64,000 nucleotides of DNA from Psammoneis japonica. Its lineage: Eukaryota. The DNA is taken from contig QPGO01000027.1 in NCBI GenBank assembly GCA_008632985.1, positions 62,001 to 126,000 of the forward strand, given 5' to 3'. Below the pieces are notes generated by a model, which was not told the origin of the DNA, did not search any database, and was given only the letters and a program-made list of their open reading frames with translations. Positions 1-64,000 of the stretch are shown in pieces; position 1 is the first letter of the stretch; each line of letters starts with the position of its first letter. The position numbers and the translations under genes are program-made.

Positions 1-2022
1 GTGCAACACAACAGCAGCAAGATTGTTCTTCATGGCATCCAATGCTGACACTCCTGCTGCTGGTGCCAGCACTGCTGTTGACAAATCATTGTGCTTCTCA
101 GGGAAAAAAATCAGATTTTCTTTCAACTCTCCTTGCCAAAAACACTTCTCAAAACCAACCAACAATCATCCTGTGAAAGTGCACAGTGGCCCTCCACTGG
201 CTGCATGAAAAACTTCACAAGAGGATGCCTGTGAGCTGCTGGCAAAAGATTTGCTGGAGGTGTGCAGCCGCTGCTGTTGGAAGGATCCTTTTTTCCTTTT
301 TTGCAGCAGCTTGAGCCAACATGCCCGCTGTGATTAAATTTTGCATTGAACAATCACAGCGCCAGCTGCACCCCCACAGCACCAGCTGTGTTCTTAATCA
401 GAAGTGTGCTGTCCACACACACACTTGTGTGTTGTGAAACAAAAGTGCTCTAGAGAGGTTGCCAAAGTCAGGGATCAAATTTAAGAACAGGGGGTCAGAG
501 GTGGCCTCTCTGGCATGCAGCTCTAAATGACAAATGCAGCATGCCAAGTGACACAGAAAAATGACAAAAATGAGAACACAACCAAGCACAATCAAGCATG
601 CTGACTGTGCACTTGTGTCATGCAACAAGTGCACTCAAAACAGGTGGCCCCTCTTTGCAGCTCCAAATGGCAAACACAACACCAAGCAACACAGCAAACA
701 AAATCAAAAACAATGATGCAGCCAGCAACAATGTCAAGTGTGCTTGTTGCACACTTTTTGCACTGTGTGACAAGTGTGCACACTCTCCAGAAAAATTGCA
801 AAGATGTGGAGTTTTCTGTGACAAAAATGACTGGACAGAGCCAGCATGGCCACATTGCAATGACAACAAGTGGCTTCAAAATCAAACAATGGACTGTTGT
901 TTGCAAAGTGACAGGCACAACAAAGCTTTGCAAAAAGGCAACAATGGTTTGCTGTGTTGTGCCCAGTGGTGTGATGTGCTTGTGTGCATGGACGCCAATG
1001 TTCACAAAAGCTGCACATCACAAAAGTTGCTTTGAATGACATCTGCCACTTTTCTTCTTGTGACAGAATGAGAGCCTTTGAGCATGTGAGTGAGGACATG
1101 CACAATCTTGAAGTTTTTGTCTGTTGATTTGAATGACCAGAAGAAGACAAAAAATGTGAGCTTTGCCAGGTAAAGACAAAGATGGGCTTCATTCTCCCTG
1201 GGGCTGGACTGGCCAGTGAGAGTCACAATGACAACAATGAAAACCAAAATGATGCTGGAAACAATTTTTTTAATGCTTTGCACCAACCACCAAAAACTCT
1301 GACAACTTGATCAGGCAGATCTGTTCAAACATCATCTGCTCTTGATGACCACAAACTTGGAAAAGTGGGGTGTGAAATGGGGCAATCCCAGCTGAAGAAC
1401 TGTTGTGTGGTCCAATGTGCAAGCTGAACAAGCTGGCTGTTTTTGTGCCAGAAAATTGCTTGTTCCACTCCAGGGGTGATGCGCCAAAGTGCACTGAAGT
1501 GCATCATCCCCAGCTCCGCTGACTGTTCATTTGGAGAACATTGCTGCTCCAGCTCAGAGTTGAAACCGGCTTGACAAGAAGCACCTCCCAGTTGGCCTGC
1601 ACCAAGGGGTGGAGAGGCAGCCATTGTTGCAAGCAAAAATGGCAAGATCCCACCAGGAGGTTGACTGCCCTTTTGAAGTGGTGTCAGTGTGTGTGTGCTT
1701 CACTTGTCTGCTGCTTGCACATTGCCACAAACAAACAACTGGCTGCCCAGCAGGACACGTTTTCCACCCCCATCAAGGCAGAAAACTTGTCATCAGGCAT
1801 GTCATCTGCAGGCAAAGAACAGTGCAGCCACAACAAGAGAGGGTGCTCCCTTGCAAGTGAGAGCCCTGCTTCAGCTGGACATGATCATTGTGGTGCAGGA
1901 ACATCATCTTCCTTTTTTTTGTTCAAATGCCAGGGTTTCAAACAGCTGCACAAAACAACAGAGGCCCGTGCAGGGTCATGGATGTCAGTTGGGTCCATGA
2001 CAAATGACAAATGGTGCCATCA

Positions 2023-2043
2023 CCAACAACAGCAACAGCAACG

Positions 2044-2074
<31 letters not shown>
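2023..2074. repeat. (CAA/CAG)n microsatellite
   Basis: caacaacagcaacagcaacgggagcagcagcagcagcagcagcagcagcag. Confidence 0.9.
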
Positions 2075-5000
2075 TGCACAGATTCTTGCTGCTGCATGAG
2101 ACCAAGGGGTGTTTGGTGGCCAGCATTGTGGCTTGGATGTGACAACTCTGCCACCAGCAAGATGAGCCCCAATGACTCTGCCTTGCTTTGGTTCCTGTCA
2201 TCTGGGGAGCAGGGTGTGTTGCTGCTGCCATCACCATGACACCATGAAAGAAACAGGCACATTGGGAGAGGGCTCTCATCTTTGCTGATGACTGAACTTT
2301 TGAGTGGCACACAGTGTTGTGTCTCCTTGCTTGTTGTGGTTTCTTGCTCTCTGTTGTTGTTTTTCCCCAGGCAAAAAACCATGTCAGAGCAAGCAAGGAG
2401 AAGTGCAGACCAGCAAGAACAAGCCAACAAAAGGAAAGGGGCTGCACTTGCCAGAATGACAAAATGAGTGGCTTTCTTCCCATGTTTTTTCTCCAAAAAG
2501 ATTGCTTCAAATCTCACTTTTCCAGATTGGTGCCTCTCCACAGCACCATGGTTTCCACCTTGCACACTTTGTCCAGCCACCAACTGCACACAACACACCC
2601 TCACCCAACCTCCAGCTCATGGCATGCAGCCCCAGCATTGCAGCAGCTGCAACTTCCATGAACCAGAAAGCTGAGAGGCAGTGGCAGTTGTGCTCACCTG
2701 ATCTTTGTAGAAAGTTTGGAGAGCATTTCCAGCATTGGCAAATCTTGACAAATGGGCTGAGATTTCACAAGAGCCAGCACAGCAAAGCATGATCCCCCCT
2801 GAAGATGATGCTGAAGAGGACAAAGAAGAGATGATTTCCATGACACACACCACAGAGAATGTGAGTGTCATGTGCAGCTCACCAAATGGCAAGGCATCAT
2901 TTCTTTGCAAGAAGATGACCACCAGTCTCCTGAAGGAGGTGGCTCCCACAGCAATGGCAACTTGGAGCTCAGCAAAGAGAGCTCAGTTGGCTCAAGAAAG
3001 TGCCAAAGTGCCTTTTGCTCCAATTGCAGCATTGCCTGAATTTGTTCGAATGCAGCACCCTTGACATTGTGATGACCATGACAGTGGCAGTCAAAGAATG
3101 GCATCATGAGATCACTTTCCCCAGGTGTGGCAAGGTTGTGCATCATTTGCCCCTCCACTTGCCAGAAGACAAATCAAAATGGCATCTGATCCAGCACATC
3201 AGTCCATTGAAGGCTCTGCAACATGTCTTGCAAGGTGGGGGAACTTGGTCTCTCCATCACTTTTCTGCTGTGCCCTTCCCACAGCTCTGTGGGGCTCTTG
3301 AACATGCTGGGGTTGAGTGTGGCAGAGTGCAAGGTTTGCAAGCAGCACAACCCTTGCACTCAGAGTGAGTGGGTGCACTGATTGGGGGCACGGCACAACC
3401 CACACCTGCAAGCACTCTTGTTGTGAGGCACTTGTCAGGTCAAGTGATGCGTGAGTGCTGAGCTCCTTCCCAGACTGTGTTCATGCCACATTTCTGGCAG
3501 ATCCCACGGCATTTGCTTGAAGCTGCCATTCTTCCTGCTTTGTGATGAGGTGTCTTCTTCTTAATTTGAAGAGCCCACATTGATGAATCAAGCAGTGTGC
3601 AGCAGCTCTCTTGATGACATTTCAACAGCCAAAACTGCCAGCATTTGCTGCTTCAGAGCTGTTTTGCACTGTGACTCCAACCAGAGCACATCACCATGGT
3701 GCAGAATGGCACAGAGAGTTTCCTCTTTCCAGCACTCAGCTGCTTGACCTGTCTCTTGAAGCCAGCCAGTCAGATCTGACAGGCCAATGAGCAAGCAATG
3801 GTGGTGATTGTTGCAAGTGAGAGACTCAATCTCATGGTTGCGAGACTTTGGCTGCAATGGAGTGCATTTGTTGCATTGCAGCATCGTTGCTGGGTGCCAA
3901 AGCATGCAAAGCAGCAGTCAGCTGATGCCAGGCCCACAACTTTTGCATGTCTTGCTTGTCAACACTGCTGCCATGGGGCTGATTGTTCCCACATGATTGA
4001 GCAGATGGCTTGTGTTGCAGCGACCTTGTGCCCAAGCATCTGTGCAGACACATGGCCAAAGCTTGACCCTTTCTACAATGTTGTGTTTGCTGCCACTCAT
4101 GCAGTTTGGTGCATTGAAAAATTCATGCATTGCAACCACACAGATTTAAACTCAGCCCTGTGATGGCTCTTGAGCTGCCTGCTGTTCACACTCAATCAAG
4201 AGGATGCATTTGGTGTCATGTCAGCACATTCTGCTGTGAGACGGAACAATGTGTGAAAAGATCCACAAACCAAAAGAAATGTTTGAATCAAACAAAGCAA
4301 GAGGTGGGCACAGCACTGGGAACTGCTCTCATGCATGAAGTTCCTGTTTCAGCAGTGCTGTTTTGGACTCACCTGAGAGCACAGTGGTGCAAGTTTGGGT
4401 TGCAAGTGTGAAAAAGATGAGTGCCACCACCAGGACAAGGCAAGTCAGACAATGTGCAAAGATGCTCTTTGTGGCAGGAACAAGACAAGCCTTGAGTGCA
4501 GTGTCTGAGAATGTCCAGCACTTGCCCAAGATTGTTGAGAACAGCTGTCAGAAGATCAAGCTGCTGGCAAAGTCAAAACACACAAGCTTCATTTGTGATG
4601 GACTGACTGCCAAGGAAAGGGAGCCCCTCACTTGAAAAGCACTGCCATCTCCTTGTGGGGCTGCACTTTGCAAACATGGGAGAATGTGGCAGGAGCTTGC
4701 AGATGATCTCAACCTGCAAGGGGCTGCAAGGTGTGATTTGAAGCCATGGCATGAAGTCTTTGGCATGGAAACAGCCAATGAGCATTGGGTCCCATTTCCC
4801 AAATGATGAGCTGATGCCCCAGCCCCATCTCAAGCTCCATGAAATCAACTGCAGGGCATCAAAGCATGACTCAAAATTCCCCTGGCATCAAACAAAATCT
4901 TTGAGAATGCCCTGTGGACAATGGGGAAGAATTCTTTTCAGAGTGCTTGCTGCATCAGCAGCCATGGCACACTCTGATGGCAATCCAAGGGCACATTGCC

Positions 5001-5249
5001 AACAGCCAGCACCAGTGGACCAAATGTGCTTCCAATGCCAAGTCACCACAGCACATCCAATGGCAGCAAAGCTCAGCTGCTGTTGGCAATGAAGGCAGCA
5101 ACGGTGATGAGCATGAGTTGTCTTTTTGAAACTTTGATGAGCCCATTTTTTTGTTTGGGGTTGAGGCCAAAAACACTTGCTGTTCCCAACTTTTCCATTT
5201 CCCCAAGTGGAGATGGAAAATCAAGAGAGTGGCTTTGCAGCATCACAGG

Positions 5250-5277
<28 letters not shown>
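5250..5277. repeat. (CT)n microsatellite
   Basis: Run of ctctctct... Confidence 0.95.
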
Positions 5278-5280
<3 letters not shown>

Positions 5281-6594
5281 GTTTGAAAATGTTGCTGCTG
5301 TTGCTGCATTTTGTGATCTTCAAAACCGGAGCCAGCTTGGCCCAAAAATGCAGTGTGTGTGCACAATGCACACCCAACCTGCCACACCCCGGCACTGACT
5401 TGCAAGGTGTCTTTGCGAAATGCATTTTTCACTTGTTCCTCTGCTTTGTCTTTGTGCACAAGCCTCAAATTTTGGGGTCAAATCAAAGACAAGAAGCCTC
5501 CACACAAACTCTGTCATCACACCCCCAAATCACTGACTGAGTTGTTTGCTGTGGCCCAAATGATGGCGTTGAGCAAATCAACAGCGGCTGCCGCCGACCC
5601 ATCACCAGCAGACGGCCCGATGCTTGAGATGGGGGAATCTCACATGATGTTGATTGTCAAAATGCCACACAGGTTGCCCTCAAATCAATTGTTTGTGATG
5701 CCAATCACCAAGAATGATGTGTGGTGGGAACCATCAATGGCTCTTGGCACCAAAATCCCATGCCAGCAGTGCACATTTGCCGCTCTGCACAGCGGCAGTT
5801 TGGTGTCAGATGTTTGGGAAAGGGAAAGCAACATCTGCGAGACAAACACCGTGGGAAAAGTTTGAACAAAGCAACACCACCCAAGACCTGGATCTTGCCT
5901 TTTTTGGTGGGTGGCATGGAAATCAGCAATTGCATTTTGTTTCCCGTGCAAGCTGCCGACTGGCCACAAAAGATCGCCCTCGGCCCCCAAAATCAAGCTG
6001 CGCTCCCCAACAAAAGTTGCTGTCAAAGCTTCTCCTCTCAATTAAAATGTTGCTTCAACCTTCAAATTAGAGCTCATGTGATCATCATTTTCATCAGCCA
6101 TCCAACCGCACACGTTGGCTGCATCAACAGAGACATTGTCGTCAATCGACCGCTGCTGTTTCGCACGCAGAGACAGTCTGAAAAACAACTCCGATGACCT
6201 TTTTGGTGAGATGTGTGCAAATGGATGACATGCAGCAGCCTTAAAATGACACTCACCGAGTGAACGTCCTCTCATAATCGTTCTGTACACACCGCTTTTA
6301 GTTCATTGTCGACACTGACACATGTCACTTCAGAAAGGGGCTCGCAAAAAGTTGGCGCGATTTTGTGGTACAAATGCTACGAGCAATCTACATACATCAT
6401 TTTTGTGTAGGACATACTGGGGAACTCCAGCGCGCAAAGCGCAAATATCGAAATCGGCACAGAGGATTTTTGACCATGGTCAAATTTATCTCAATCTCTC
6501 TCCATCCCTCTGCTCATCGTCCAGAAGCAGCACATGCACCCGCAACGCAGCACCGTTCCTTTTCTCGTACGACACCCGCTGTGCAGCATTCAAC

Positions 6595-15525: not shown

Positions 15526-16117
15526 GTTTTGTGATGATGCGAGTCTCTCTTGAAACAAGGTGACCTGAGATTTCTCAAAATGTGTTTTCTAAGCAAGGGG
15601 TCAGCCAAGAAGAAGGGTGTCAGAGTTGTTGAAAATAAAGATTGCTTTTCACTCCTTGTTCAACGCAGCAACCTGCCTCATTGCTCATTGTTGTTCACTG
15701 TTCGTTGCTTAACGCTTTACAGTACAAGTATTCCGCTCGCAACAAAGATGTCGGAAGTCGGACGGACGCTTCACCGCCAATCGCCCGCGCGCTCGCGTCG
15801 TCGCGAGGCCGCCGCCAGCGTGGCCCCTTGCGCGATTCAGATTCTTCAAGGGTGCGCGCGTGGCCCTCCAGCCACGCACGACAGAATCAACGCGACGTGA
15901 CGACGACATCATCGGAAAGGCTAACGTCACGAAAGAGAAACACATTAAATGAAATATAATCAGCTCTTTTATATCAATAACGCGTCATCACTGGTGACGT
16001 TGATTGCGATTGATCACGATACGAAAAGTGGTCACAGAAAGTTCGTTCCAGCTGTTTTTTCCTCTCACAATTCACTCTCATTGATCGTTAATAAAATCAA
16101 CCGAAGACACCATCAAC

Positions 16118-16681
16118 ATGAACGCTCTTGCTCGTACTGCCTTCTCTGCCGTCCCACGGTAAGTTCGTTTGAAAGCCAGAACTTGGTGGATGGAAGGAAG
16201 AAAGACTCAAAGAAGATGGAATGCTCGACGCTTGGGTTCACGAGTTGACGCAAAAGAAGGCTTCAACGTCGTCGTGTTGACACGTGCGTTGCATCCCAAA
16301 AGAACAAAACATCAACTTGGTGTCTTTCTTCCATCTGTTCGTCCAGTCTTGCTTCATGCACTTCACCATCCATACCTTTTATCAAACATGAAACACACTG
16401 CTCACTCGTCTCTTTTCTCTCACTTGTTTCTATTAGTGCCGCTACTAGAACGACTGGTCGCCGTGGATTCAACGCTGGAACACTTGTCACGGAAAAGGAA
16501 ATCCCCATGGGAGGTGCCAAGGTTTGGCTTTCGGACGTGGGTGCCTACCCTGTCATTGCAATCTTGGGCGTGGCTGTCACGGGCTGCTCGGCCTACATTG
16601 CCCACCACTTTTTTTACTTGCCCCGACGTTCGTGCCGACCGTACCAAGCGTCAGTCTATTATCCGCACCTGGGATAGATAA
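16118..16681 (+). CDS. NDUFA4: NDUFA4/B12D-family mitochondrial respiratory-chain subunit, copy 1
   Basis: Exon 1 MNALARTAFSAVPR, intron from 16159 (gtaagt) to ~16436, exon 2 ..VWLSDVGAYPVIAILGVAVTGC..CPDVRADRTKRQSIIRTWDR*. One extra T in the 7-T run near 16609-16615. Confidence 0.75.
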
Positions 16682-17253
16682 AACAAATGGGTGTCGTGTA
16701 TTTATTATACACATGGCGACAATTTGTACCCTTTGCTTTGAATAGAGCGGCAGCGTAGACCATTGCGTTGCTGTAAATTAGAAATGAACAGAATTACGTG
16801 CGATATTATTTGTGGGATTTCAAATTTGCCATCCAGTAGTACCGTACATTGCGTTTTCATGGATTGTCTTGTTTTGCCACCAAACCTCGGTCGCAAGATC
16901 CTTCCGGGAACTGGTTAGCATCTCGAGCGCCGGAATGCGTTTAGCAAGCACTGCGCTTGGCTGCCGCGCTCACCACCTAAACACATTATTTCCCCAGGTC
17001 ATTTACGATATGGTGAGGTGTTTCTTTGTTGTTTTCAATCATAAAAAGGAGGAATGAGAGACTGACGCTACAGTATCTCTTTGGTACTGCATGGATTTTC
17101 TCTCCGTAAATCCGGGAATCGCTCCGCCCCCCTGCCACCTCCACAACGGCTTGCCGCGTTCATCACCATCTACAGCAGAATAGGAAATACAAAACCCATA
17201 ACGACTACTACGTTAATTCTCTCTAACAAAATACTACATCATGTACATAGTTC

Positions 17254-23496: not shown

Positions 23497-23943
23497 GGGC
23501 AGGGCGCAGGAGCGAGCGAGCAACAACGCAAGGAACCAAAGCTGATGAATAAACTAAAACAAAAATCAACCTCTCATGGATACGGTACAGTAGCATCCAG
23601 CCCTATCGTATACCTAGTATCAAAGGTGTGCCAGCAAGGGACAGCGTCGCGGTGAAAACTCTCTGGGTTTTGCTGGGGAGGCTACTTTCGTTAAAAGTAC
23701 AACAACACATGAAAGACATGGGGGGAACAAAGGCCAACGCAAGCATGGCAAGAAAGGTGATGCATGAGATGCTACATATTTCCAATATGCATCGTTGAAA
23801 TGAGTCTGTTTTTTAAATTGTTGTCTCTTGTTTCTAATTTACACGATAGTCACGGTCAAAGCTACTGCGCGCTCTATCCAAAATCGCTCTCTTGTTCAAG
23901 AGAGCGGTCCAAAGCATATGTATATACACAATGCCTCAATTGT

Positions 23944-24519
23944 TTATCTATTCCATGTGCGGATAATAGACTGACGCTTGGTACGGTCAGCCCGAACATC
24001 GGGGCAAGTGAAAAAGTGGTGGGTAATGTAGGCAGAGCAACCCGTAACAGCCACACCCAAGATTGCAATAACGGGGTAGGCACCCACGTCGGAAAGCCAC
24101 ACCTTGGTGCCGCCCATGGGGATTTCCTTTTCCGTAACAAGGGTTCCAGCGTTGAATCCACGGCGACCAGTCGTTCTAGTAGCGGCACTATTATAAACAA
24201 GAGAGAGGTGACAGAGCAGAGTGAGCGGCATGATTCATGATTGATGGAAGGTTTTCATGGTTGATGGAGCGAGATCTGATTTACAGTTGGAAAAAAGATA
24301 CCATATCACAATTAGGATTTGTTCTTTTTTCCGGCTTCAATACATGTATCAACGTCGCACGACAGCGTTTGTTTGTTTCACTTTTAGCGCAAACCCGTCC
24401 ACAGTACGCAGCCGAGCAGTTCACCCTCAAGTCTTTCTTCATTCAATCCACCAAGTTCTGGCTTTCAAATGAACTTACCGTGGGACGGCAGAGAAGGCAG
24501 TACGGGCAAGAGCGTTCAT
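23944..24519 (-). CDS. NDUFA4: NDUFA4/B12D-family subunit, copy 2 (inverted duplicate)
   Basis: Same two-exon structure as copy 1 and a near-identical peptide (..KVWLSDVGAYPVIAILGVAVTGCSAYITHHFFTCPDVRADRTKRQSIIRTWNR*). Confidence 0.8.
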
Positions 24520-24963
24520 GTTGATGGTGTCTTTTGATTTTTGTGATGTTACAACAGTCGAAGTGAATTGTGAGACAACCTGCACAAGGAAACAACTGGC
24601 AAAGAATTTTGTGAGAGTTTTGCAATCAACGTCACTAGCGATGACGCGTTATTCAACTATACAGATCCTTTTAAATTTCCATGAAAGCGTTGATTAGGGT
24701 GATGACGTTGTCATTTCCGTTGAAGTCTTCATCCAATTAACGCGGCACATTTCTACGACGATCCGTACGTGGAGCTTACGTATGTGCAGCCGCGTGATTC
24801 TTTTTTGCTGACGTGGTTCGGTTCATCGCGCCTACTACAGACAGACCAAAATATTTGGATTCGACCGGCCGAACGAGCGACTGCCAGACACCGAGGAGGA
24901 ACAAACATGCATCAAGCAAAAATTCAACGCTGTGATCGCATCTCTTGCAACTGTCAACTTACG

Positions 24964-30550: not shown

Positions 30551-33359
30551 TAGAGGAACAACAATTGCTGTGACCTCTCTACTCGACGGCACCAAGCCAG
30601 GAATGAATGTGTCTACGTATATATTTGCTTATTATATTTAATCTTTATAGTTTACTCGCTTGAGCCAACATGGTGTGGCAGGATTATAGTTGCGTTAATT
30701 ACTCCCGGTAGAGAGACTGAAGCGGTCGACGACTTTGGTGCTGAGAACTTGGAGGAACTTGAACCTGCTCAAGGTGACACATTGCGGGACGGGCGACTTT
30801 ACAGATGCTGGGCCGTCAAACAGTCCTTTTTGAAACAGCGGCAACTTTTTATGTGCACAGTCACACTCACAATTTGTTGGTTGGGGTTTCACCAACAAGA
30901 TGATCATAAACAATCAACCAACACAGTGATTGCTGGTCAATGCTGGTGCCCTTGGGGCAGTCTTTTTTGGCTGGCTGAGGAACAAAACTGTGTGGACAGA
31001 TGTCTCAGACTGGCATCAAGATGCTGTACATGCAATCAAAAACAAGTGCAAGGCTGCTGTTGCCGCCATCACCCCACACCCCCAGGTGCAAGAACACGCT
31101 CTACAGCTGAGCCAAGAACCAACAATGTGTGACACATGTCACCATGACCCACCTCAAGACCCGTTGTTGGGTGTGCAAGTCTCAGAGCCAGCACTTGCAT
31201 CACTCTGGCTGTTGTTGATTTCTTCAACATTGTGGCCACATCTTCCCTTCCATGTGACCACCAGGACAACCTCTGTCACATCCACCCCCACCAAACTGTT
31301 GACCATGTTCTTGTGTGCTCAGATCACAACCACCTCTCTGTTGAACCCCCCCCCCCCCATCTGCCACAATGATGAACCACATGGTCAGGTCCATTGCAGC
31401 CCATCTCTGAATGAAGTCTTTTTTGTGAAAAACTGAGCAAGAGCTTCAACAAGTTGGCTGGGCTCCACCACCATGCAAATGAGACACTTGAAAGAAGTGC
31501 AATGCTTTGGCAAAAAGCAGCAGCAAAATGACTTGTTGCAAGAACAAAAGAGCACACCCTTTCAAAAATCTGGTGGAGAAACTTGCAAATGTGTTTGTTG
31601 CCTTGCCAAGGACCCCAAGTCAACTTGAGATTTTCTGGTCATCAAAAAGTTGATGCACCATGCTGAGGCAGCTGTGCTCAAACTTCTGATGCTGAGCTTT
31701 GGCTTGCAAAGCTGTTGTCAGCAAAAAAGGGCAAAGAGACTTCTGAGGAGCTCTTCTTTGCCATTGCTGTAGTTGGCCCAAGATTAGAAAGCACTGTGGC
31801 TGTCTTCTGCTGTGCCAAAATTGTGAAATCCAAAAATCCCATCCAGGGGCATTGACCAAACATTCTTGGAGCACACAACAAACCTGGCGACATTGCTCTC
31901 ATGGAATTTTGATCCCCCTCAAGTGGCAGCTGGCACACACAGTGCACCTCATCATCACAAATTCACCAGCCATGGCATGGGCATGAAAACAACACAGAAA
32001 GGTGCTCTCTGTCATCAACTTTTTGACAACAAGTTCAAAAATGCACTCTTGCACAAATCACGGTCTTTGGGCTCAAAGTTTGCTGAGTCACCAGCCGTTG
32101 CAGCTGAGCTTTCTCAACAAGCTTTAAAGCTGACCTGCAAAAGCCAAAGCCTCTTCAGCAACCTCAGTGGCTCTCAAATCATGGCCATGATGCTGCCTGT
32201 CATGAACCCACTGCCCACTCCAATTCTTGGACCATTCTTTTAGTCTGAGAGCCACTCCAAGATGATTGACATGACCTTCAATGTCAGTGCAAGCTGCCAT
32301 GCACCACACTTGGCCATCTTGGTGACACCAGCACAGATGATGTTCAAGTGACTGAAGCCCTTCATTCACAACACAGTGCACATGGGATGAACAGCCAAAT
32401 TCATGTTGCATGCCTGCAAAGTTGCTGAGCCCACACAAGGCAGCACAGCTGCCTGCTGTTGTGCAGTTGATGAGTTTGCATCCAACAGAGCAGACCCAAC
32501 AGGCAGAGTGGAAGAAGTTTGTCAAAGATGTGAGAAAAAATCCACAGAAGTCATCATGCATGCATGCAAACCAACCACCAGCACCATGGGCTGATCAACC
32601 CCCCGCACCATTTTGTCTGAAGAACTGCAGCTGTCAGAGACACAGCCCAATGCACTGCCAGCTCTGCTTCCACTTTTGTGTGGCAGAGAACAAATGTTTG
32701 TGCATGCAAGTGTGAGTGCCAGCAGGGCCATGCAAGTGCACATCACATGTGAGCTCCAGTGCCTGCATTTCTGCCACCCGCTGTCTGTGACCCAGCACTC
32801 ATCATGATGTTCTTGGGCATGCTGCTTTTGGCTGTTTTCTGTCTTGTGCCATCACAGTGTGTGTTGCAGCTCTGATGAAGCAAATGCAATCTCTGTTGAT
32901 CTTGCCTTTTGGTGGGTGGAGAGGACAAAGTGTGTGCATCTGGGACACCAATGATCTGGGTCTGACCGTCTGCCACAATCTGGGCATTTCTTGACTTTAA
33001 CACCAGATTTTTGTCAACTTATGAGCCAATTCTCTCCTTGAACACAACATGAGAACTGTGTGAGTTTGTGAGCTTCTAAAACCCAAATTGCTTCTCACTT
33101 TTAAGTGCGATCATTCCTTTCACACAATGCAGACCTGCACCCCAATTGACATTTGGGGTTTCTTGTTCTTTTAACACAAATGTTGCTGCTCATAATCCAC
33201 CCTCCTTTTCTGCCAACTTGTCCCACATTTTGTCTCATTGCTGTGCCATTTTCAAATCCAACTTCCCAATTGCCACACGTTGTTGCATCTGGGCCGCATC
33301 GCAGAATGTTTTTTTTAATTTTCACTTGCCCAGATGTCATTGTTTGTTTCAAATTAAGT

Positions 33360-34493
33360 TCACACACCAGTTTGGTTGGTGGCCATTGCGGCATTTGCTG
33401 CCGCTCCGTTGCCTGCAGCCACCGCCTGCAATGGCAGGTCCTCTCCCATTGGCGCCGCCCATCCTTCCTCTCTCTCCTTTCTTTTTTCCTCTCTTTTGCA
33501 TTTCTTGTTTTCCTCCTGAGACAAGTTTGTCTTCTCTTGCCTTCTCTCCTTGAACCATGCACCGAATCCCTGGTTGTTCTCTCTGTCTTTCACCACCCAC
33601 TGATGCAGATCATTGCACTTCTCGATCCCCTCCTTGCTCCATCCTTGGTTCCTCTTTGCTGATTCCCCCGCCGCCAGCGCTGTGCACTTTGCAGGAGCAG
33701 CATCTTTCACAGTTGGCTTTCTTCTCCTTGCAATGTTTTCTTCCTTTTCCAATTTCTCTGCCGTGTCCTTCACCTTGTTGCAGCAGTTCAAGCACACTGG
33801 CAGAGCAAACGCCTCCGACGAAACCGAAAGCCATTCCTGAAGCATGTCGGTTGTGCTTCCACCAAACTGCACTTGTCCCACCACCGTCGGCACCACAGTT
33901 TCCAAGAACCGTGCACATGTGTCCTTGTCATTTCTTCCCTTTGTCAAGTCTTCGTAAGCCACCAGCGATCCCTCTAAAGCAGCAACTGCACAGACAATGG
34001 CAAAGGAAGAGACACTCATCCTGTTGGACAATCGCCTCCAACACAATCACCGGCACGCACACATCCACTCACCTGTCATTCTCCTCCCAATGTTGTCCTG
34101 CACACTGTTCCTCTTTCGGTTGAGTTTGGTCCTGAACACCTCTTTGCATTCTTCCCAGAACTTCCCCGGTGAAGACGCCATGCTCCTTGGCTCCTGCAGA
34201 ACCAATTTCATGCAATCTCCTCCCACGGCAAGTTCATGATCGAAGATTGTGAACTTGCGACATGGCCAAACACTCTCATTGACAACCTTGGTCAACATCG
34301 ATGCTGTCAATTTCTCGCTCACTGCCGGTGCACGATCCAACACAAGACATCCCTCTGTGGGAGTCACCACCGAACTTGAATCGCCACCTGCATGCTGGAA
34401 TCTGTTCAACTCCCCATGTTCGTTTCTTTGTGCATGCAACAAGGCCGCCACCGCAGGACTCATGGCAACTTCATGTGACACCACACAGATCAA
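33360..34493 (-). pseudogene. Decayed TE-associated hypothetical protein
   Basis: VVPTVVG..SSEAFAL.V(C>Y)LN(CC>YY)..K(C>Y)T..NQGWSKEGIEK(C>Y)NDL(H>Y)..V.KDR resembles an ORF family I associate with diatom DNA transposons. Contains an internal stop. Confidence 0.5.
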
Positions 34494-36044: not shown

Positions 36045-36941
36045 TCACACACTTGCTGTGTCGAAATTGTGGACTGGACATGCCATGTTCCTTCCATCCG
36101 AACTCGTTTTGTTGGGCAAAGCTTGGTGCAACATTCTTGCATCAAAAACAAATGCAGTGCCTGCTTCTCCAACCAGCAATTGTTTTTCCAAACCCAACCC
36201 AACCAATTGTCTTTCGCGCTCCTTCTCATTCAATGTCACCTCACAACTGTCCGGCCACATCTCCACTGCACCATTGTGCTCCGTCATGTCATCAAGGAAC
36301 AGAAACATGGTGAAAATTTTGTTGCCAGGTGACAATTTTGTTTCCACACAATCGCGATGAATTTCCCCCTTTGACCAGAAGTTGGATCTTGAACTTGAAG
36401 CAGGAGCATTTGCTGCTGTGTGCCGGGATGTCTTTCTGCTCAAATCACCCGCCAGGGGAAAGCCAGGAATTAACTCCAACATTTTTTCTGCCAACCCAAT
36501 GCCTTCCGCCTTTTCCTTTTTGTCAATGGTGAACTCACCGACAAAACGGTGTCCTTCCTTTTCTCCCTTCCTGCTTGGTGCCTTGTTTGCAAGCGTTGTC
36601 ATCTTGTTGAGCAGGGGTGGTGGTGTTTTGAATTTTTGCAAGCAGCCTTTTTTTCTTTCCTGGTGCTCTCTTTCTTTGGACCCCACCTTCTTGCTCTTGA
36701 CGACATGAGATTTCATTTTGCCCGGGCATGTCAGTGACTTGCCATGTTTCTGGCATGAAGTTGTCGGCCAACGGGCAAATTTCCGGCATCTGTTCACAGA
36801 ACACTTCCGCGCCATTCTCTGAAGTTGCCTGTTCCACCAAATCAAATGGCACCTGGTCTTTTTCTTTAAGTGGAACAGACCCAATGTAGCGAAAGTCCGC
36901 ACCCATTGCTTTGCAACAAAAACGGCTTTCTTGCCAAACAT
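36045..36941 (-). pseudogene. PhyH-type 2-oxoglutarate/Fe(II) dioxygenase with an N-terminal Cys/His cluster
   Basis: IHRD..FLFLDDMTEHNGAVEMWPDS..GEAGTAFVFDARMLH.A.PN.T..R gives the HxD...H facial triad and distal Arg. Upstream KCSVNRCRKFARWPTTSCQKHG. Confidence 0.7.
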
Positions 36942-37295
36942 GTGTTGCCAACAGCGGTCTGTCTGTTGTGGGCACCACGGGTGTTTTTTTCACAAACAGT
37001 CCCATGTGATGTTTTGACAACGGCAGTCCATCTGTCGGGTGCATCACAGACGTTTTTTTGCCAACAGTTGCATGTGATGTGATCTTCGTTGATCCTGTTT
37101 GCTGAATGATCTCATCAAATTGGTCATCCCAGCTGTCTCAAAAGCACAGAAAACAATTTTGTTGCTCACAATTCTGTTGGTGATGATGTGAGATGTTTTC
37201 ACATCACCACAGCGGCAGACACAAAGCAAAAGCTTCCATCCACCGCACATTCCGCACCACAAACAAACCATTGCTTTTTCAGCACTGCACCCATC

Positions 37296-37410
37296 TGTTG
37301 ACAGAGCAATTTGGTGTCACTTTTCATTGTTAGAACTGTTTGTTAACAAAGTAATTTGGTGTCACTTTTCTGTTGTCAAACATGTTTGTCAACAGAAGAA
37401 TTTGGCATCA
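37296..37410. repeat. ~45-bp tandem repeat, 2.5 copies
   Basis: tgttgacagagcaatttggtgtcacttttc / tgttaacaaagtaatttggtgtcacttttc / tgtcaacagaagaatttggcatca. Confidence 0.8.
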
Positions 37411-38231: not shown

Positions 38232-38657
38232 TTGCGTGCTGCTTCCACTTCCCATCTGTTTCTTGCCTGAAAAATTGTTGTTGATGTTTCCTAGAATGAC
38301 ACCATTGCCAAAGCTCCAACGATTGCAACTGGTGTCGATTCCTGTGTGGAAGGTGCCAAAGACGACGACAATGACACCATGGGCGGAGACGGATGTCATG
38401 GATGACGAACAACAAATTTGGACTGTTGCAGACAGTGAAGAATGTTCATTGGTAAGGGATTTCATCTGTCGTGCTGCTTCCCTTTCCCATCGGTTCCCTG
38501 CCTGACAAAGTGCATGTTGATGTGTCCCAGAATGACAGCAATGATCAAAGTCAAACGATTGCCACCGGTGTCGACTCCATTGAGGTGGCCACCCATGACA
38601 ACAACAACGACTCTACATGGGCGGAGACAGATGACATGGTTGATGAACATCCAATTG
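38232..38657 (+). repeat. Diverged direct repeat, period ~235 bp
   Basis: cgtgctgcttcc..ttcccatc..tgcctga..gttgatgt..agaatgaca..ggtgtcga..catgggcggagac.gatg occurs at ~38232-38420 and ~38467-38657. Confidence 0.8.
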
Positions 38658-41496: not shown

Positions 41497-44372
41497 CGTG
41501 CGGATGGACGGGGAGGAAGGATGGAATGGGCAGGGAGAGAAAATTGAGAAAACAATTGGAGTCTAGATTGACGGACATGGGCAGCGATTTTGATCCAGAA
41601 AGTTGATTGACACACAATCCAGAAATTAAAGTGGAACCAAATGTGCACATGAGGCTTGTCGGATGGGGGGGCAAATGGTCAAATTGAGGAACACAGATGT
41701 TTGTTGTTGAACATTTCAGAAAATCTGGCTTGTCAAATCAGCACGATCTTGGATCAAAGGGAGAAAATGTTGGGTTTCATTTCAAGAAATCTTGACGGCC
41801 AGTGCGACACCTGGATCATTGGTGTCCCAGATGTGGAGGTCACTCCTGTGTGATGCGCTGGAGTTGTTTGTGTGAAAACAAGCCTGGCGGGACAACCCCA
41901 GCTCATGTTGTCACCATCATTGCAACATCTGAGTTGCAGCTGAAGACAAGTGTCACAAAGAACAATCCCACGACACTCCATGACATTGCCTCACACAACT
42001 GCAGACCATCTCTGCAGATTGACAGCAGACAGACAGACCATCAGAAAACAATGGCTGGTGGCTGATCATTCTCGATCAAAAACAGCAAATCTGCTGGAGT
42101 GTCAACAAAACTGGAAACACTGCAAATGGACCACAACAGATGCCACAAGAATTGACCACAAAATTTTCATCCGACAGAAAAATGTCTCTGTGATCTCTTG
42201 GAGGGAGTTTGCACATCACAAACACCTTTCAACCACACGAGCTGCTTTCCATCCCAGCTCGGTGATGCCACGTGTAAAAAACAACCCCCCGTTTTTAACC
42301 AAATGCCCACTTTGATCGACTGACAGCATGCAGATACGAAGCTCAGCACACTTTTGGGGGCTGGAATGGGGGTGAACGTTGGTCACCAACCAATCACTGA
42401 ACATTGACCCTCGCACTTGCCCCCATGCAACAAAGGTGCTCCACGAAAAGTTGGTTCCATTTTCAAACACCCGACACCATGAACAACACATGCTTGCTAC
42501 ATTCTTGCAAGACATCGGTTTGAAGAGTGTGACACTGACAATGCTCATGTCTTGTGCATTTTGTGGCTCTAGCGGGGGTCAAATCTAGCCAATTCTTCCA
42601 AAAACTTTGAGTTGAGTGGGTCACATGGGATTCAAGACACGTGACTTGCTGCACAGTTGTTGAGCCTTTCTCCTTTCTTGACTCCAAGATTGGATGACAA
42701 CATCAACACAAGACCTGTTTCATGGCTGTGTTCTGTTCTCTGATCCATGGCCAGCCTCCTGACAACTGCATTTGACCTCTTTCATGCTGCAAACTGGCAA
42801 AGCAATCCTCGAATGCTCATTTCAAGTCACACTTTTCTGTTTTGAGATTTGACATTTGCAACTTTGCAACAAATCTAGAGTGGGCACGAGCCAGGAAGAA
42901 GCTCTGTTCACTGCTGTTTGTCATTCTGTAGAATGGCAGCACATCAGAACAATGTTGTCAATGTTGTTTGACTGCTTTTTTCTTGAACCATGCACCAACT
43001 TCATTCTGCGCTCTCGCTGCCATCCGCCCGACTCTCCTCCATCCAAGAATGCTTGGCTGAATGTGTTGCAGTTGCTTTGCCAAAGTCTTGCATGTGTTCG
43101 TCTGTTCAATGCCATTGCTCAAATGGGACAATTGACACGACAATGACATTGGATTCGTTCATGTGCTGCTCATGCCAGGAAAGACAAAACAAGAATTGGC
43201 TGTGGCGGCAAGAAAGTTGAGTGAGACAACAAGTGGTGAGCCTTGGACATGTTGACAACACAATTTTGATTTTAAATTTACTTGCCTTTTTATGAACTCG
43301 GACTTCAACACATGGGATTCCGAAAATCCGGCAAATGGCGAGTTGATGCATTGTCTGCATGCAACATGGTGCAACGACAAAGTGAAACAGCATGTTTCAA
43401 TGTTTCTCGCCAAAATGAACATCTCTGAATGAACGGTTGCAGCTGCACATTGACGAGGGTCTGACAGAGCTTCTGTTGCAATGGTCCAAAAAACGACGAA
43501 TGTTCAGACACCTCATCCACCGCGTCAATGTCATCATCGGCTCTGGCGGGTTTTTGACAATTTCTCCGTGTTGTCACCACAAGATGGTCTGCACACTCAT
43601 CTGGAGCATGCTGGCCATGCCAGTTTGAAGCCATTTAAGGCTTGGGTCTCGCAGCTGCAAATTTGCAAAAAATGATTGTTTGTCAGCCCCGATGGCTGCA
43701 CCCAGAAGGCAACAACACAAGTTGAAACAGAGACAAAAGGACAAACAAAGTCTTTCATCTGTTCATCAGATTTCCTTGAGAGAATGAGGGGATCTTCACC
43801 TCTCACTCTCTCCCCAAGATCTTCTGTGTCTGGTTGGAGCATGCTGGAGAGAAAGAAGAGCGGCCGAGAGAGAGGGTGCAGGAGATGTGCTCTCATTTTC
43901 AGGCAGCCTCGAGCAAGCCCAACAAGCAGTGGAAAGAGTTGCAGTTCCTTCTCTGGACTGTCATCTTGCAGATGCAGCTCTCGGATCGCATTCATCACAG
44001 ACATCCAACGGGGCCTGCTGTTGGCTTCAAGCCGCCGGGCTGGCTGCTGGAGTGGCCAGCTGAACGCTTGTCTGCGCCTTGCGCCGGATGGTTCCCTCTC
44101 AGAACGAGAACAACCGCGGCACGAATCATATCAAGAATGCGGCATCAACTCGCGCAACAACGTGGGTGATGCCGGATGCCGATCAAAACGAACAACAGAG
44201 AACAGAATGAGACTACATCATGCATCAGTGCATGGATAGTCTCTAGAGGTGTATTGTGCATCACACGCGACGGTTCCGTGCTGTGTAATATTATTGTGCC
44301 GTGCAAGAAGACAAGAAGCAACCACTGGGTAGGGTTTGCACATTAATCGATACGAAAAGCAAGAACAACGCA

Positions 44373-51938: not shown

Positions 51939-52139
51939 CCGGGCTTTAGCTTTTAACGATAGAAAACTCCAAGCTTTTAACCATATCTTTATATGCTCTA
52001 GGCTACATTGCTGGCTCTAGCTAAGGCACGAGGTGCCTCGCCAAGTCTATCTACTCTAGAGTGAGCACGATTCACCATCACTTTGTGGTAGGCTATGTTG
52101 TTTGTTGGTCCAGTGCAAATAAAGTGTCATGTGTTTATG

Positions 52140-53785
52140 ACCAATGTTCAGACGGCATCATTCCTCTAAAGTGGTGGTTGCGTCACGCATCCGCAGTCTT
52201 TCTCCACAAGAGAGAGAAGGACAACTTTTAAACACAGTGTGCAGGACGTTTGGCAGAAGGAATGGGAGATGAGTCAGTGTGGAGAGAGGAGGCAAAGCAA
52301 AGGGCATGCATGGAAAGATGGCAGATGAAGTTGTGGTGGCCAAGCGTTTGAACAGTCAGCCCATTGGGAGGAAGGGAAGGCAGAATGGTGCATGCTGCCA
52401 GAGCGATCATTGAAAAGGCAGCTCCACGCAAAATGAGCAGAGGGAAGAAGAGCAGATGGGGGTGTGAGGGTGCAGAGAAAAACAGAGCAGGAAGCACTGG
52501 AGGTCAGAGGAGGAAGACCAGGGAGGCTTTGGTTGAGAGCAGGCAGAGGAGAGCAAAGAACCAAAGAGAGGAGCCGACAGCATCAATGGAAGCCAAGACA
52601 CCACCAAGGTGATCAACTGCAAAGAGAAGAAGGAAGATTCTGTCATTGTTGAGCAAAGCAACAACAAGAAATCCATCGGCAAAGGCAGAACAGAGCAGCC
52701 AAGAAGCTTCAGTCTCATGCTTGAGTGGTGTGCCTCAGTTGAAACAGGGAAGAGCAAGAAGGATCCTGGTGGGGAATGGCGACATTGACAGAGGGACATG
52801 GCGGTGGCAGAAGGGAGCTGGAAGAGAAGCAGGAGCTGGCATGGAAATGCCAACATCAGCAGAGCAGAGGAGCAGATGGGTGTGGAAAGCAGATTCATGA
52901 GCTCAAGGCAAACATCACTGGAGGAGTGACAGATTTTGGCAAGGGGCTCCAAAGTCTGAGACACAATGAAGAAAGTGTCTGGGAGACCATCAGCAGAGAG
53001 TTTAGATTTGTGACCATGATCACTGCAGGCATTGAGCACAGCATCACTGCAGAGACAGGGTGTGCCAATGAGGGAAGGAGGGAGGACTGGGAGATGGAGT
53101 TTGTTCTGGGCAGCAACAATGATGCAGCCATCAAAAGCAAGGCAGGAGCTCTCTGGAAGCAACGGAAGAGGAGCAAAGAGGAGGCTGGACAGCAGAGACA
53201 AGAGAGAAGGTGGAGAAACTTGCACATTGTGAGGAGCATCAGCTGGGGTGGCAGTGACCCCTTGCTGCTGGTGATCATGGCAGAGAGGACAGCGTGAGAG
53301 GTCAGGGAGAGAGCAGCAGACTTGAGAAGAGGAGCAGCCAAAAAGGAAGAAGCAGCAGACTCAACAAGAGCAGCCAAAGAGGAAGTGGAAGAGGAGGAGG
53401 TGGAAGCAAGAGCAGAGGCAAAGCGGTGGAATGCCATGCAGAGATGCAGGGTCAAACGGGGGTTGCTCCAGGAGGACAAAGACATCTTGAAGAAGCAGCG
53501 GGAAAGAGCGATGGCAGCCATTGTGTCGTCTCCAGATGGCAGCTGAATGCCATGAGCAGCAGACCACAAGGATCAGAGGAGAGCAACAAGGAAGGGGGGA
53601 TGGAAGCAGTGGACAGGTCCCAAAGGCCAAAGCCACCGAGTGAAGCAGGGAGAAAGGTGATGGCAAGGGAGTGGGGAGGAAGAGACTCATGGCCAGCATG
53701 AGAGGTGGCAACAACGAGTCGAAGGAATCGATGGTCAGCAGTGTGACAAGGGTGTCCTGAAAGGAGGATGTCCAAAGAAAAGGAT
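52140..53785. mobile_element. TpA/CpG-depleted island 3 (decayed purine-rich ORF, unassigned repeat)
   Basis: No TA seen from ~52231 to ~53788. Broken Glu/Arg/Ala-rich reading frames on the + strand. Confidence 0.55.
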
Positions 53786-54070
53786 CGGGAGGGTTATCGG
53801 GATCGAAGTTATGATAAGAGTCAGCACCAAGAAGGTGAGTGGAGGATGCCCCGCTGGATGAGGGTGGGCGTGAAGAACACATCATGCGCGTGCTTCACGC
53901 GTGTTCTTCTGTCATGGTGTATGTTCGTCTGCGACACGTCGTTGAAGTGCGTGCTGTCTGCGCCGCAACTGCATTCCGTGAGATCATCACGCACGCAAGA
54001 GCGAGCATGCCGTTGTCGCTGTTGAAGCCGATATCATTTTCTTGACAGCGCGAACTTTGTTATTGCCACC

Positions 54071-62121: not shown

Positions 62122-62399
62122 GATTGTGTATAGTGATATGGTGGGAGAAACGCTATGTACCAGCGTCGCTGGAAGGGATGTGTGTCGTTGACGACGACGG
62201 TTGCTGTCAGAGATCCTTCGCCGCCGCCGGCATGGTGTGTTGTGGTGTTGGGTGTTGCTGATTTTTAGGGTTTCTGGCGCGCTTATCATACTTTCAAGTA
62301 CAAATAAAATTTATGTTTGATGTCATCACCAATTAACGATTCAGATAATTCAGTCGTGATCCGAGATCAAGCAAGTCGTGCCAATGACCTGAGCTAAAA

Positions 62400-64000
62400 T
62401 CACCTCTCCACTCACACAAACATCATGGTTGACATCATGACCCCTGACCCAACAATGCCCTCACTGTTTGCAAGTCCAAGTAATGCTGTCAACAACAACG
62501 TGACAATTGTGAACATGCATCAAGCTTGGCAGCAACAGCCCTTTGTAAAGCATCAGGACACTCGCCACACAAACACCATGGTTGACATCATGACCCCTGA
62601 CCCAACAATGCCCTCACTGTTTGCAAGTCCAAGCAATGCTGTCAACAACAACGTGACAATTGTGAACATGCATCAAGCTTGGCAGCAACAGCCCTTTGTG
62701 AAGCATCAGGACACAAGAACAAGGCAGCAACAGCCCTTTGTGAAGAGCATCGGGGACACAAGAACAAACAAGTTGAGCCGCCTTCTCCAGGAGCAAGTTG
62801 GTTTCAGACAAAACAGAGTTTTTTTAAATGTCTCTGAGAGAGCTGAGACTCATGTTTTTTTGTCATCAGCACATTTTGTTGGGTGGTGGATGTGTGCATT
62901 GGGACTGCTTTCACCCCCCACCAAGAGAAAAAAGCAAGAAACTTTTTGGCAACAACCCACAAGGTTTTCTGTGCATTTCCACGTGCCACACACTTTTGCA
63001 CGAAATTTGTGCAAGACAACTGAGCTCCAGAACACTGACATTTTTTTAATGCAAGCTCACACTTTTTGCTGGGCCACTGAGGAAAGCACAATGGTTAAAA
63101 TTTTGTTTCTTGGCACACAAACAAACAAATCTTTTTCACTTGTTTTAAGCCACCTGTGTGGCTCATTCTGTCTGCATTTTAAACACTTGTTGAGAACAGC
63201 TTCATTTGTTTTTTTCCTTGCATTTGTCAGATCTTAAGTTGCCTGTGTGGCTCACACAAGTGTTTTCTCTGTGTGCTGCAGTTTGCCACTTGCAGAGCAA
63301 AAATCAGTGAAATCGATTCCGTGATGTGCTTGACAAGTGCAAGACCCAGACAAACAACCCAGGTGAGTGTGAACAAGTTGATTGTTGCCACAGTTGCTTT
63401 TAAAAATGATGTGAATGTCACTCAATGCATTGTTCATGCAACATGGCACCACACAGGCGCAGTCTTGTTTTGGTTTCTTGGAAGAAGGGTGGGCTCCAGT
63501 TTTGGGTGGTTGAGATCTGCACTTGTGAGCAAAAAAGAAAAAAGCATGAACAATGTGCACCCTCGGTGTGACACACTCATCTCATTGATGATGTGAATGA
63601 TGCTCACAGATTTTGAACAGACAACTGTGTGTCTGGAATGTCTTTTCGGAAGCCAGATTTGGGTGCCACCTTTTGGAAAGCAACGGATGAAGCACGATCA
63701 AGTTTGCAAAAGTCACAAGTGACTTCAGTCATTTTCATGGGTGTCTCAGACTTCTGTTGTGTGCAAGTGACACTCACAGGGCACAGTGCAACAGTGAGGG
63801 GGTTGTTGCAAGTGTTTTCTTCACCATCCTGCTGTTTGACATGATGACTGCACTCATTCTGGCTGGTGCAAGGGACTCTTGGGGCATTGTTTGTCTTTCT
63901 TGGTTGATTTGTCCCATTTCAACAACTGTGTTGTTCAACAACAATGACAGGTGAACCAGACTGGGCATTTCAGTGGAGAAATGAACATTGTGCATGTGTT
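62400..64000. mobile_element. TpA/CpG-depleted domain 4 (runs off the window)
   Basis: Abrupt TA/CG loss just upstream of the RecQ promoter. Surviving TA are mostly TTAA. Confidence 0.55.
62413..62745 (+). repeat. 153-bp tandem duplication plus a short partial third copy
   Basis: atggttgacatcatgacccctgacc... starts at 62425 and 62578. Partial copy ggcagcaacagccctttgtgaag at ~62722. Confidence 0.95.

Follow-up and report, generated by a model that had tools for sequence, protein, structure and literature searches.

Within a 64,000-nucleotide stretch of DNA of the alga Psammoneis japonica (GenBank assembly GCA_008632985.1, contig QPGO01000027.1, positions 62,001 to 126,000 of the forward strand; hereafter the window, with positions counted from its first letter), sharply bounded blocks, one of which contains a Plavaka-like DNA transposon, are almost devoid of the dinucleotide TA and have lost CpG to different degrees. 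We consider it probable, with some reserve, that two mutation processes of different speed act on the same silent domains, so that the two losses are decoupled in rate and degree and not in territory. The first process would convert TA to TG or CA, which is an A:T to G:C transition; the second, slower and cumulative, would convert CG to TG or CA.

TA and CpG losses across the window

CpG and TpA were followed as observed/expected (O/E) tracks at 500 bp and 200 bp, normalised for base composition, together with site lists. The background, 41,256 bp of pooled normal gene-bearing DNA of the window, has an O/E of 1.02 for CpG, 0.57 for TpA and 1.18 for TG and CA. Compared to this, the pooled old blocks (1-5400, 30850-33250, 52230-53440 and 62400-64000) retain 56 CG (O/E 0.09) and 35 TA (O/E 0.05), with TG and CA at 1.8-1.9, which confirms the double loss described for the first three of them in a previous interpretation made from the DNA letters only (the sequence-only reading). 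An intermediate state is found at 33300-43900, the domain of the Plavaka-like transposon, with 330 CG (O/E 0.53), 54 TA (O/E 0.08) and TG and CA at 1.6. The stretch 5560-6240 falls in the same state: 23 CG stand against 42.0 expected at background O/E (Poisson P 0.001) and 2 TA (6043, 6068) against 24.6 (Poisson P 7e-9), with an O/E of 0.56 for CpG and 1.72 for TG/CA. None of 1952 background windows of 681 bp matches it on TpA, on CpG or on TG/CA, and the lowest background TpA O/E at this length is 0.23. The sequence-only reading had described such regions as rich in CpG with TA nearly absent; the second half of this statement holds, whereas about half of the CpG is gone both at 5560-6240 and at 33300-43900. 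A CpG level of about half the background is typical for 5560-6000 (0.49), for 53441-53794 (0.38) and for the Plavaka-like domain, and near-normal values are confined to the outermost ~230 bp (0.73 at 6001-6241, 1.01 at 43983-44213). At 43900-44128 there are 14 CG and no TA. Seven isolated 200-bp windows in ordinary genes also combine a TpA O/E below 0.2 with normal CpG, and 0.8% of background windows are as TA-poor as 43900-44120. Since TA-poor zones of about 200 bp arise by chance, 43900-44120 on its own is weak evidence.

The kind of change follows from the balance of dinucleotides. The sum of CG, TA, TG and CA per base is 0.2432 in the background, 0.2400 in the old blocks, 0.2379 in the Plavaka domain and 0.2496 at 5560-6240, and because it stays constant, both losses are transitions into TG/CA. 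GC content is 0.48-0.49 in the blocks versus 0.47 in the background. Gains of TG and CA are about equal (1077 vs 1061 in the Plavaka domain, 1177 vs 1279 in the old blocks); with a DNA transposon as the element, this places the change on DNA and on both strands. Being A:T to G:C, the change at TA cannot be a side effect of cytosine deamination. The earlier suggestion that TA is unlikely to be lost only as a by-product of CpG decay is borne out by this opposite chemical direction, by a strong context rule of its own, and by its near completeness where CpG is only half lost.

The blocks, their edge zones and the parts of the element are as follows (strand given where one applies):
1..5566, old silent block, CpG and TpA erased, TG/CA O/E ~1.8-2.0, CpG changepoint at 5567
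5567..6274, edge zone, TA erased, CpG O/E 0.59
30840..32936, old block, CpG O/E 0.07, TpA 0.06, single-copy contig depth
32937..41833, minus strand, Plavaka-like DNA transposon copy, CpG O/E 0.54, TpA 0.08, multi-copy
36048..36989, minus strand, frame of a PhyH-type 2-oxoglutarate (2OG)-Fe(II) oxygenase within the element, PF05721
39286..41562, minus strand, transposase frame remnant, 759 codons with one internal stop
41834..43400, further multi-copy repeat DNA, CpG O/E 0.40, TpA 0.10
43401..44213, right edge zone, one TA in each sub-zone (43401-43982 and 43983-44213)
52137..53440, old block with both losses, TA and CpG boundaries coinciding at the left edge
53441..53794, edge zone, 0 TA versus 8.0 expected, CpG O/E 0.38
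62378..62547, counter-example zone, CpG depleted with TA present, outer unit of a tandem duplication
62566..64000, old block with both losses, starting with the inner tandem unit

Within the edge zone 5567-6274, CpG O/E rises from 0.49 over the inner 440 bp to 0.73 over the outer 240 bp. Three TA are left in this zone, each in the resistant YTAR context (Y, pyrimidine; R, purine). The two sub-zones of the right edge zone differ likewise (0.43 at 43401-43982, 1.01 at 43983-44213), and a contig of single-copy depth, which continues into the neighbouring genes, covers this zone from 43549 on.

A flank and strand rule for TA erasure

Erasure depends strongly on the flanking bases. With survival expressed as density relative to the normal gene-bearing regions of the window, and not to the ancestral sequence of the elements, TTAA is kept (0.97 in the old blocks, 0.86 in the Plavaka domain) and ATAT, ATAC, ATAG and GTAC are practically absent (0-0.03 and 0-0.05, respectively). 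Other contexts are lost more slowly, namely CTAG (0.08 and 0.61), CTAA (0.18 and 0.28) and GTAA (0.05 and 0.18). Y-TA-R sites make up 56 of the 89 residual TA in the domains versus 229 of 1615 in the background (odds ratio 10.3, P 5e-24).

Asymmetric sites (R-TA-R / Y-TA-Y) have mainly become Y-TG-Y / R-CA-R, as judged from the balance of tetranucleotides. In the Plavaka domain the other product class rose by 0.73 per 100 bp against 1.96 asymmetric TA sites lost, and at least 63% of asymmetric sites gave YTGY/RCAR, or about all of them if CpG decay is strand-symmetric. Strand shares solved jointly from two data sets were unstable (p 0.46 or 0.87), and only the bound, p of at least 0.63, is used here. 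Five of six directly seen asymmetric changes agree with the strand rule. Judged by these products, the base changed would mostly be an A followed by a pyrimidine (TAY to TGY).

Edges and nesting of the two losses

Single changepoints were fitted separately for CG and for TA of susceptible contexts at six edges. Every TA edge is a step and none a gradient, with support intervals of 60-454 bp. The clearest offset is at the right edge of block 1, where the TA changepoint at 6275 (support 6215-6275) lies 708 bp further out than that of CG at 5567 (5525-5585). The offset is marginal at the right edges of the Plavaka domain (TA 44214, CG 43982, +232 bp with supports that just overlap) and of block 3 (+80 bp by single changepoint, with a CpG level of 0.38 beyond it as listed above). 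At the left edge of block 3 both changepoints coincide (-56 bp), and the order is reversed at the left edge of the 30840 block, where CpG loss lies 263 bp further out with overlapping supports, as well as at the left edge of block 4. TA loss lying further out is clear at one of the six edges, marginal at two, absent at one and reversed at two; it is no general rule. The sequence-only reading had proposed that TA erasure extends further and is faster or broader than CpG loss. "Faster" stands, as TA is nearly gone where CpG is half lost, but "broader" and "extends further" apply clearly to one edge out of six.

In the 200-bp tracks, CpG O/E falls below 0.4 in only 3 of 207 windows with a TpA O/E of at least 0.2, and all 3 lie within blocks. 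By contrast, the 113 TA-poor windows spread over all CpG levels (45 below 0.2, 32 at 0.2-0.5, 22 at 0.5-0.8 and 14 at 0.8 or above), although 7 of those with normal CpG are isolated windows in ordinary genes. Inside TA-erased domains CpG O/E ranges from 0 to 1.35, and the correlation between both tracks restricted to TA-poor windows is weak (0.33).

Contigs, copy number and age

All read evidence consists of contigs from one sample, which may be that from which the assembly was made, and covers 30001-50000; single differences are taken from the 40 listed among 369 rows. Summed contig depth is 55-80 over 30001-32668 and 44008-50000 and rises to 700-4800 over 32669-44007. By likeness, the 3925 contigs divide into 921 at 99% or more, 1298 at 95-99% and 1706 at 90-95%. 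The CpG-free block left of the element (30668-32668) has single-copy depth and no relative at 90% likeness or more. Depth and likeness together indicate that the Plavaka-like domain belongs to a multi-copy, fairly young family. As independent and complete decay of CpG and TA alone would add ~7% divergence by our estimate, "single-copy at 90%" means older or unique. A second measure comes from the slow TA contexts (CTAA, CTAG, GTAA), of which the Plavaka domain retains 26 and the old blocks 9 over equal length (P 0.006), with the spared TTAA as control at 15 and 17. These contexts, an independent measure, order the blocks as CpG does and agree with depth. Taken together, depth, likeness and slow contexts support, without proving it, that a higher CpG level marks younger DNA, and with it the earlier proposal that the CpG level may date insertions and makes the Plavaka block the younger one.

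Both losses have left differences between copies. At 36953 and 37996 all covering contigs have CG where the assembly copy has CA/TG, and at 40148 the assembly copy has TA and 12 contigs have CA, so both processes acted after the copies had diverged. In the right edge zone, 6 of the listed assembly-contig differences fall in ~680 bp (43549-44230), 3 of them CG/TG or CG/CA and 1 TA/TG, whereas the other ~1640 bp of this contig contribute 1 listed difference (7 of its 8 differences are listed); allelic CG/TG differences are at 43650, 43841 and 44227. The density of differences, mostly at CG or TA, is ~7-fold higher in this zone than in the adjoining gene region. From these base differences, both processes look recent. 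The CA/TG double differences at 34499-34500 and 34513-34514 were dropped as cases of independent TA erasure, since independent CpG decay gives the same pattern.

These data also bear on the possibility that CpG survives in the Plavaka-like domain and in the edge zones because methylation is weak or absent there, and not because this DNA is young, so that the CpG level would not date insertions. The edge zones do adjoin plus-strand reading frames (from 6319, 44289 and 54026), where methylation might be excluded, and at 5567 CpG changes in one sharp step and not along a gradient. We nevertheless regard this explanation as unlikely: the Plavaka domain, unlike the CpG-free block beside it, is multi-copy and has numerous near-identical contigs, exposure judged by the slow TA contexts ranks the blocks as CpG does, and the private CpG losses together with the allelic CG/TG differences mean that CpG decay is under way in the Plavaka domain and in the edge zone.

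A different question is whether the family spread from an already TA-erased source copy, in which case the lack of TA would say nothing about the speed of the process after insertion. The 921 contigs that are at least 99% like this TA-free copy fit such a history, and so do the 285 transition rows over 20 kb, which by our estimate are fewer than independent erasure with random strand choice would give. A deterministic strand rule, however, makes independent erasure yield identical products, which removes the argument from the low transition count. Moreover, 40148 is still TA here and CA in others, 43549-44213 (past the multi-copy part, on a contig of single-copy depth) and 5567-6274 are erased as well, and conserved tyrosines of the transposase are lost, so that an autonomous source copy would probably be inactive; non-autonomous spread is possible. 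Wholesale inheritance of the TA-free state thus appears quite unlikely to us.

Contigs of single-copy depth (k-mer depth ~55-60) reproduce 30577-32962 with 8 differences in ~2300 bp, and the erased state is therefore no assembly artefact. One contig differs from the assembly at 6 positions in 30577-32124, and at 5 of these (30620, 30622, 30907, 31028, 31770) an assembly TA is read as CA/TG. The first two are ATAT sites ~220 bp beyond the block edge where the contig has CA and the assembly TA, and for this reason the edge of TA erasure may differ between alleles or between cells of the culture. A general origin of the pattern in base composition, coding bias or errors of assembly or base calling at modified bases seems scarcely credible. 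In its favour one can name the seven TA-poor windows with normal CpG in ordinary genes and the fact that all data stem from one sample. Against it, O/E values are composition-normalised and the partial correlation given GC is unchanged, no background window resembles the 681-bp zone, 5 of the 8 contig differences just mentioned show even more TA erasure, and the amino-acid changes of the transposase obey the same rule.

Duplicated DNA of the window gives further comparisons. The tandem units 62413-62561 and 62566-62714 are 98% identical with 3 differences, 2 of which are TA in the outer and CA or TG in the inner unit. A direct gene duplicate of 1.2 kb in normal DNA (29609-30812 and 48106-49331, a metallopeptidase-like region, 87% identity) carries 125 differences: 55 transversions, 43 other transitions, 19 of CpG type and 8 of TA type, symmetric in direction. 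This ordinary spectrum suggests that duplication as such is not visibly the trigger, with the reservation that an old duplicate below a similarity threshold is uninformative on this point. The copy at 29609-30812, which ends ~30 bp before an erased block, has no TA erasure. An inverted duplicate (15976-16704 and 23921-24653, 77% identity) also lies in normal DNA.

The Plavaka-like element and its transposase

The C-terminal 351 amino acids of the frame 39286-41562 have 297 protein matches at E<=0.001, the best with 41% identity (E 9.6e-65). When 38 homologues were scanned with the Pfam model PF18759 (Plavaka), 22 matched at E<=0.001 and 16 of these reached the curated cut-off; a language-model look-up of the remnant gave Plavaka clusters at 0.95. 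The frames of the window itself have no match to PF18759. The label "Plavaka" used in the sequence-only reading is supported by transitive homology only. Word-seeded protein searches with the remnant had no match at "longer" or "near" lengths, and a metagenome scan gave 40 pattern matches with 0 confirmed. Inverted arms at 32937-32961 and 41809-41833 are 92% complementary and are extended by 32986-33015 and 41761-41790; as candidate terminal inverted repeats, 32937-33015 and 41761-41833 would bound an element of 8.9 kb. Such repeats together with multiple copies are what characterises Plavaka (KDZ-type) elements, and both are found here. Near the left end (32998-33355) lies a cluster of 8 TA, 6 of which are spared Y-TA-R sites, mostly TTAA. 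Contig joints 37631>40428 and 38111>40503 span 2.4-2.8 kb and remove part of the transposase region; the joined contigs are probably deletion derivatives of the family.

The protein records the TA change. Compared with 14 homologues the remnant is poor in tyrosine (0.3% vs 2.8%) and isoleucine (1.7 vs 4.7) and rich in histidine (6.3 vs 3.2) and cysteine (5.1 vs 2.4). A column with tyrosine in all 14 homologues has cysteine (TGT) in the remnant, as does a column with tyrosine in 10 of 14 (TGC), and the 8 tyrosines of the closest homologue align to cysteine three times, histidine twice and tyrosine once. As the CpG counterpart, four to five arginine positions align to histidine or cysteine. The TA change in this frame came after the protein had been functional.

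The PhyH frame 36048-36989 is on the same strand as the transposase remnant (PF05721, E 2.4e-7; Atlas PhyH clusters 0.96). Fungal Plavaka/KDZ elements travel with TET/JBP dioxygenases, and the frame in the present element belongs to another 2OG family.

Two processes or one

Some points weigh against two separate processes, or against parts of that interpretation. The sequence-only reading had itself named co-variation of the tracks after GC normalisation as what would refute it, and at window scale co-variation is what we find (Spearman 0.63 over 320 windows of 200 bp, partial r 0.64 given GC); we attribute it to the nesting of CpG loss in TA-erased domains. At the left edge of block 4 (62378-62547), CpG loss reaches 169 bp beyond TA loss with non-overlapping supports. 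In the half-decayed domain, RCGY is left at 0.37 and YCGR at 0.68 of what normal-region composition predicts, and this weaker parallel to the TA rule would also fit a single machine with two substrates. The CA/TG double differences could descend from TA or from CG. The TA loss of this copy may be partly inherited from an already erased source, and 5567-6274 may be unique flank or a younger repeat fragment. To these come the yardstick of context survival and the single sample behind the contigs, both described above. The roles given to 5-methylcytosine in CpG decay and to silenced chromatin as the place of attack are inferred.

A single enzyme system that turns both TA and CG into TG/CA, with TA as the better substrate, is the most direct form of this objection. 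It could be a deaminase with both A and C as substrates, or one that recognises T and 5-methylcytosine as the two 5-methylpyrimidines, and no separate decay of 5-methylcytosine would then be needed. It would account for the lack of CpG loss outside TA-erased domains, where the three windows noted above all lie within blocks, and for the parallel flanks, with RTAY lost far faster than YTAR and RCGY faster than YCGR. The Bigelowiella preprint discussed below refers to reports of ADAT2 enzymes that deaminate both bases, A and C, in DNA. But the TA rule is near absolute, with TTAA spared, and the CpG flank preference, although of the same form, is much weaker and gone at saturation; at 62378-62547 CpG is depleted while TA persists; and the CpG context figures rest on background composition and not on ancestral sequence. 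Decay of 5-methylcytosine in methylated repeats is established and needs no new assumption, and the Bigelowiella mutations given in that preprint (210 of 211 and 20 of 20 A>G/T>C) have no C>T component. We give this explanation little credence. In the same half-decayed domain (33300-43900), CpG survival is ~0.8 after a 5' C (CCGA, CCGC, CCGG) and 0.3-0.57 otherwise.

Returning to two processes, the fast one would already be complete in a transposon that is young and still multi-copy, and over a few hundred bp of the DNA beside it, with R-TA-Y going first, Y-TA-R last and TTAA spared. Its agent would be an enzyme guided to silenced chromatin, in the simplest case an ADAT/TadA-like deaminase of adenine in DNA. 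The slow process would most simply be spontaneous deamination of 5-methylcytosine in methylated repeat DNA. Early saturation of the fast process explains the TA step at the domain edge, and CpG would record accumulated exposure, from ~0.07-0.1 in the old blocks through ~0.5 in the young element and the edge zones to normal values in the outermost ~230 bp. All in all, the earlier interpretation is partly supported: right on a separate, faster TA erasure and too strong on "plentiful" CpG and on "extends further".

Neighbouring DNA

Between the blocks the window holds ordinary genes (Arf, PP2C, a RecQ helicase, a UAA transporter, an amino-acid transporter and others). Pfam recognises no family in block 1..5566 or in the other blocks outside the Plavaka-like domain, and none of the 95 reading frames of at least 100 amino acids within the blocks has a transposon domain in Pfam. 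A self-comparison of the window found no similarity among the erased blocks, and a search of the index of scanned DNA found no look-alike of 5560-6240. At 28141-28335 a 15-bp tandem repeat of at least 9 units lies in a reading frame adjoining a ricin-type lectin domain and would encode a five-residue repeat.

Comparison with known mutation systems

The closest parallel is found in mutation-accumulation lines of Bigelowiella natans, where hypermutation of TpA to TpG/CpA was measured in integrated giant-virus and virophage DNA, and where clusters of TpA-poor, CpA+TpG-rich windows occur genome-wide; an ADAT2-like candidate was proposed, and DNA editing by ADAT2 is cited (Mettrop et al., 10.64898/2026.01.13.699255). 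Within the available text of this preprint, the likeness extends to the restriction to TpA, with TpG or CpA arising by strand, to the confinement to bounded regions of invading DNA with TpA depletion and CpA+TpG enrichment in clustered windows, and to an adenine deaminase as the proposed agent. In Psammoneis, A>G/T>C change at TpA only is seen in the balance of pyrimidine-purine steps, the tandem units, the contig differences and the replacement of tyrosine by cysteine or histidine, and one of the bounded domains carries the Plavaka-like transposon. The differences, again relative to that text, are that the process here, in another alga, hits silent blocks with transposons and part of the DNA next to them, that erasure is near saturation (TpA O/E 0.05-0.08, compared with 3.3% TpA in the viral region there), and that a flank rule applies (TTAA spared, TAY preferred). 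In Bigelowiella a greatly raised de novo mutation rate was measured across generations, whereas the evidence here is indirect, namely TA/CA and TA/TG differences between assembly and contigs in one sample. Furthermore, TA erasure in Psammoneis lies on top of CpG decay, a topic outside the main text of the preprint, in which neither "CpG" nor "diatom" occurs (10.64898/2026.01.13.699255).

CpG decay driven by methylation explains the CpG part only and cannot give A:T to G:C at TA. The likeness for the CG to TG/CA part is that it is limited to repeat or silent DNA and grows with apparent age. According to a report on a diatom, cells that lack DNMT5a lose DNA methylation, and their young transposons become de-repressed (PMC9998398).

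Repeat-induced point mutation offers a contrast, as it too disables repeated or invading DNA by point mutation with a strong dinucleotide preference. In Neurospora and other ascomycetes it changes C to T mainly at CpA, creating TpA, and can reach adjoining unique DNA. The direction here is the opposite: TpA is destroyed and GC is kept (0.48), whereas repeat-induced point mutation raises TpA and lowers GC (here TpA O/E 0.05-0.08 and GC 0.48-0.49 vs 0.47). As to its trigger, duplication, the gene duplicate has 8 TA-type changes among 125 differences, and DNA of single-copy depth beside the blocks is erased.

The tRNA adenosine deaminases ADAT2/3 and TadA edit A34 after the conserved U33, the site of bacterial TadA being U-A-C. 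The putative target 5'-T-A-Y-3' resembles this U33-A34-C35 site; unlike in tRNA editing, the substrate of the putative activity would be double-stranded chromatin DNA. No deaminase gene was found within the 64-kb window.

Implications

In this alga TA is erased by a process of its own that is faster than CpG decay and whose kind only one preprint has described so far; natural A:T editing of nuclear DNA aimed at invaders has been reported once, in 2026 and in an unrelated alga. More tentatively, and at present somewhat doubtful as a whole, one may picture a domain-directed DNA base editor that changes A:T to G:C at 5'-TAY-3' independently of cytosine methylation, completes its work while a transposon family is still multiplying, reaches a few hundred bases into neighbouring unique DNA and continues to act in the sequenced culture. 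If true, this editor, the slower CpG decay and the slow contexts CTAG, CTAA and GTAA would be built-in clocks that date silencing events. If the rate difference holds genome-wide, CpG level and slow TA contexts could order insertions in time. Candidate enzymes can be narrowed down by the sharp sequence rule of TA erasure, and the domain edges would be natural places to catch the process at work. Since adjoining DNA of single-copy depth is affected as well, genes beside silent blocks are at risk.

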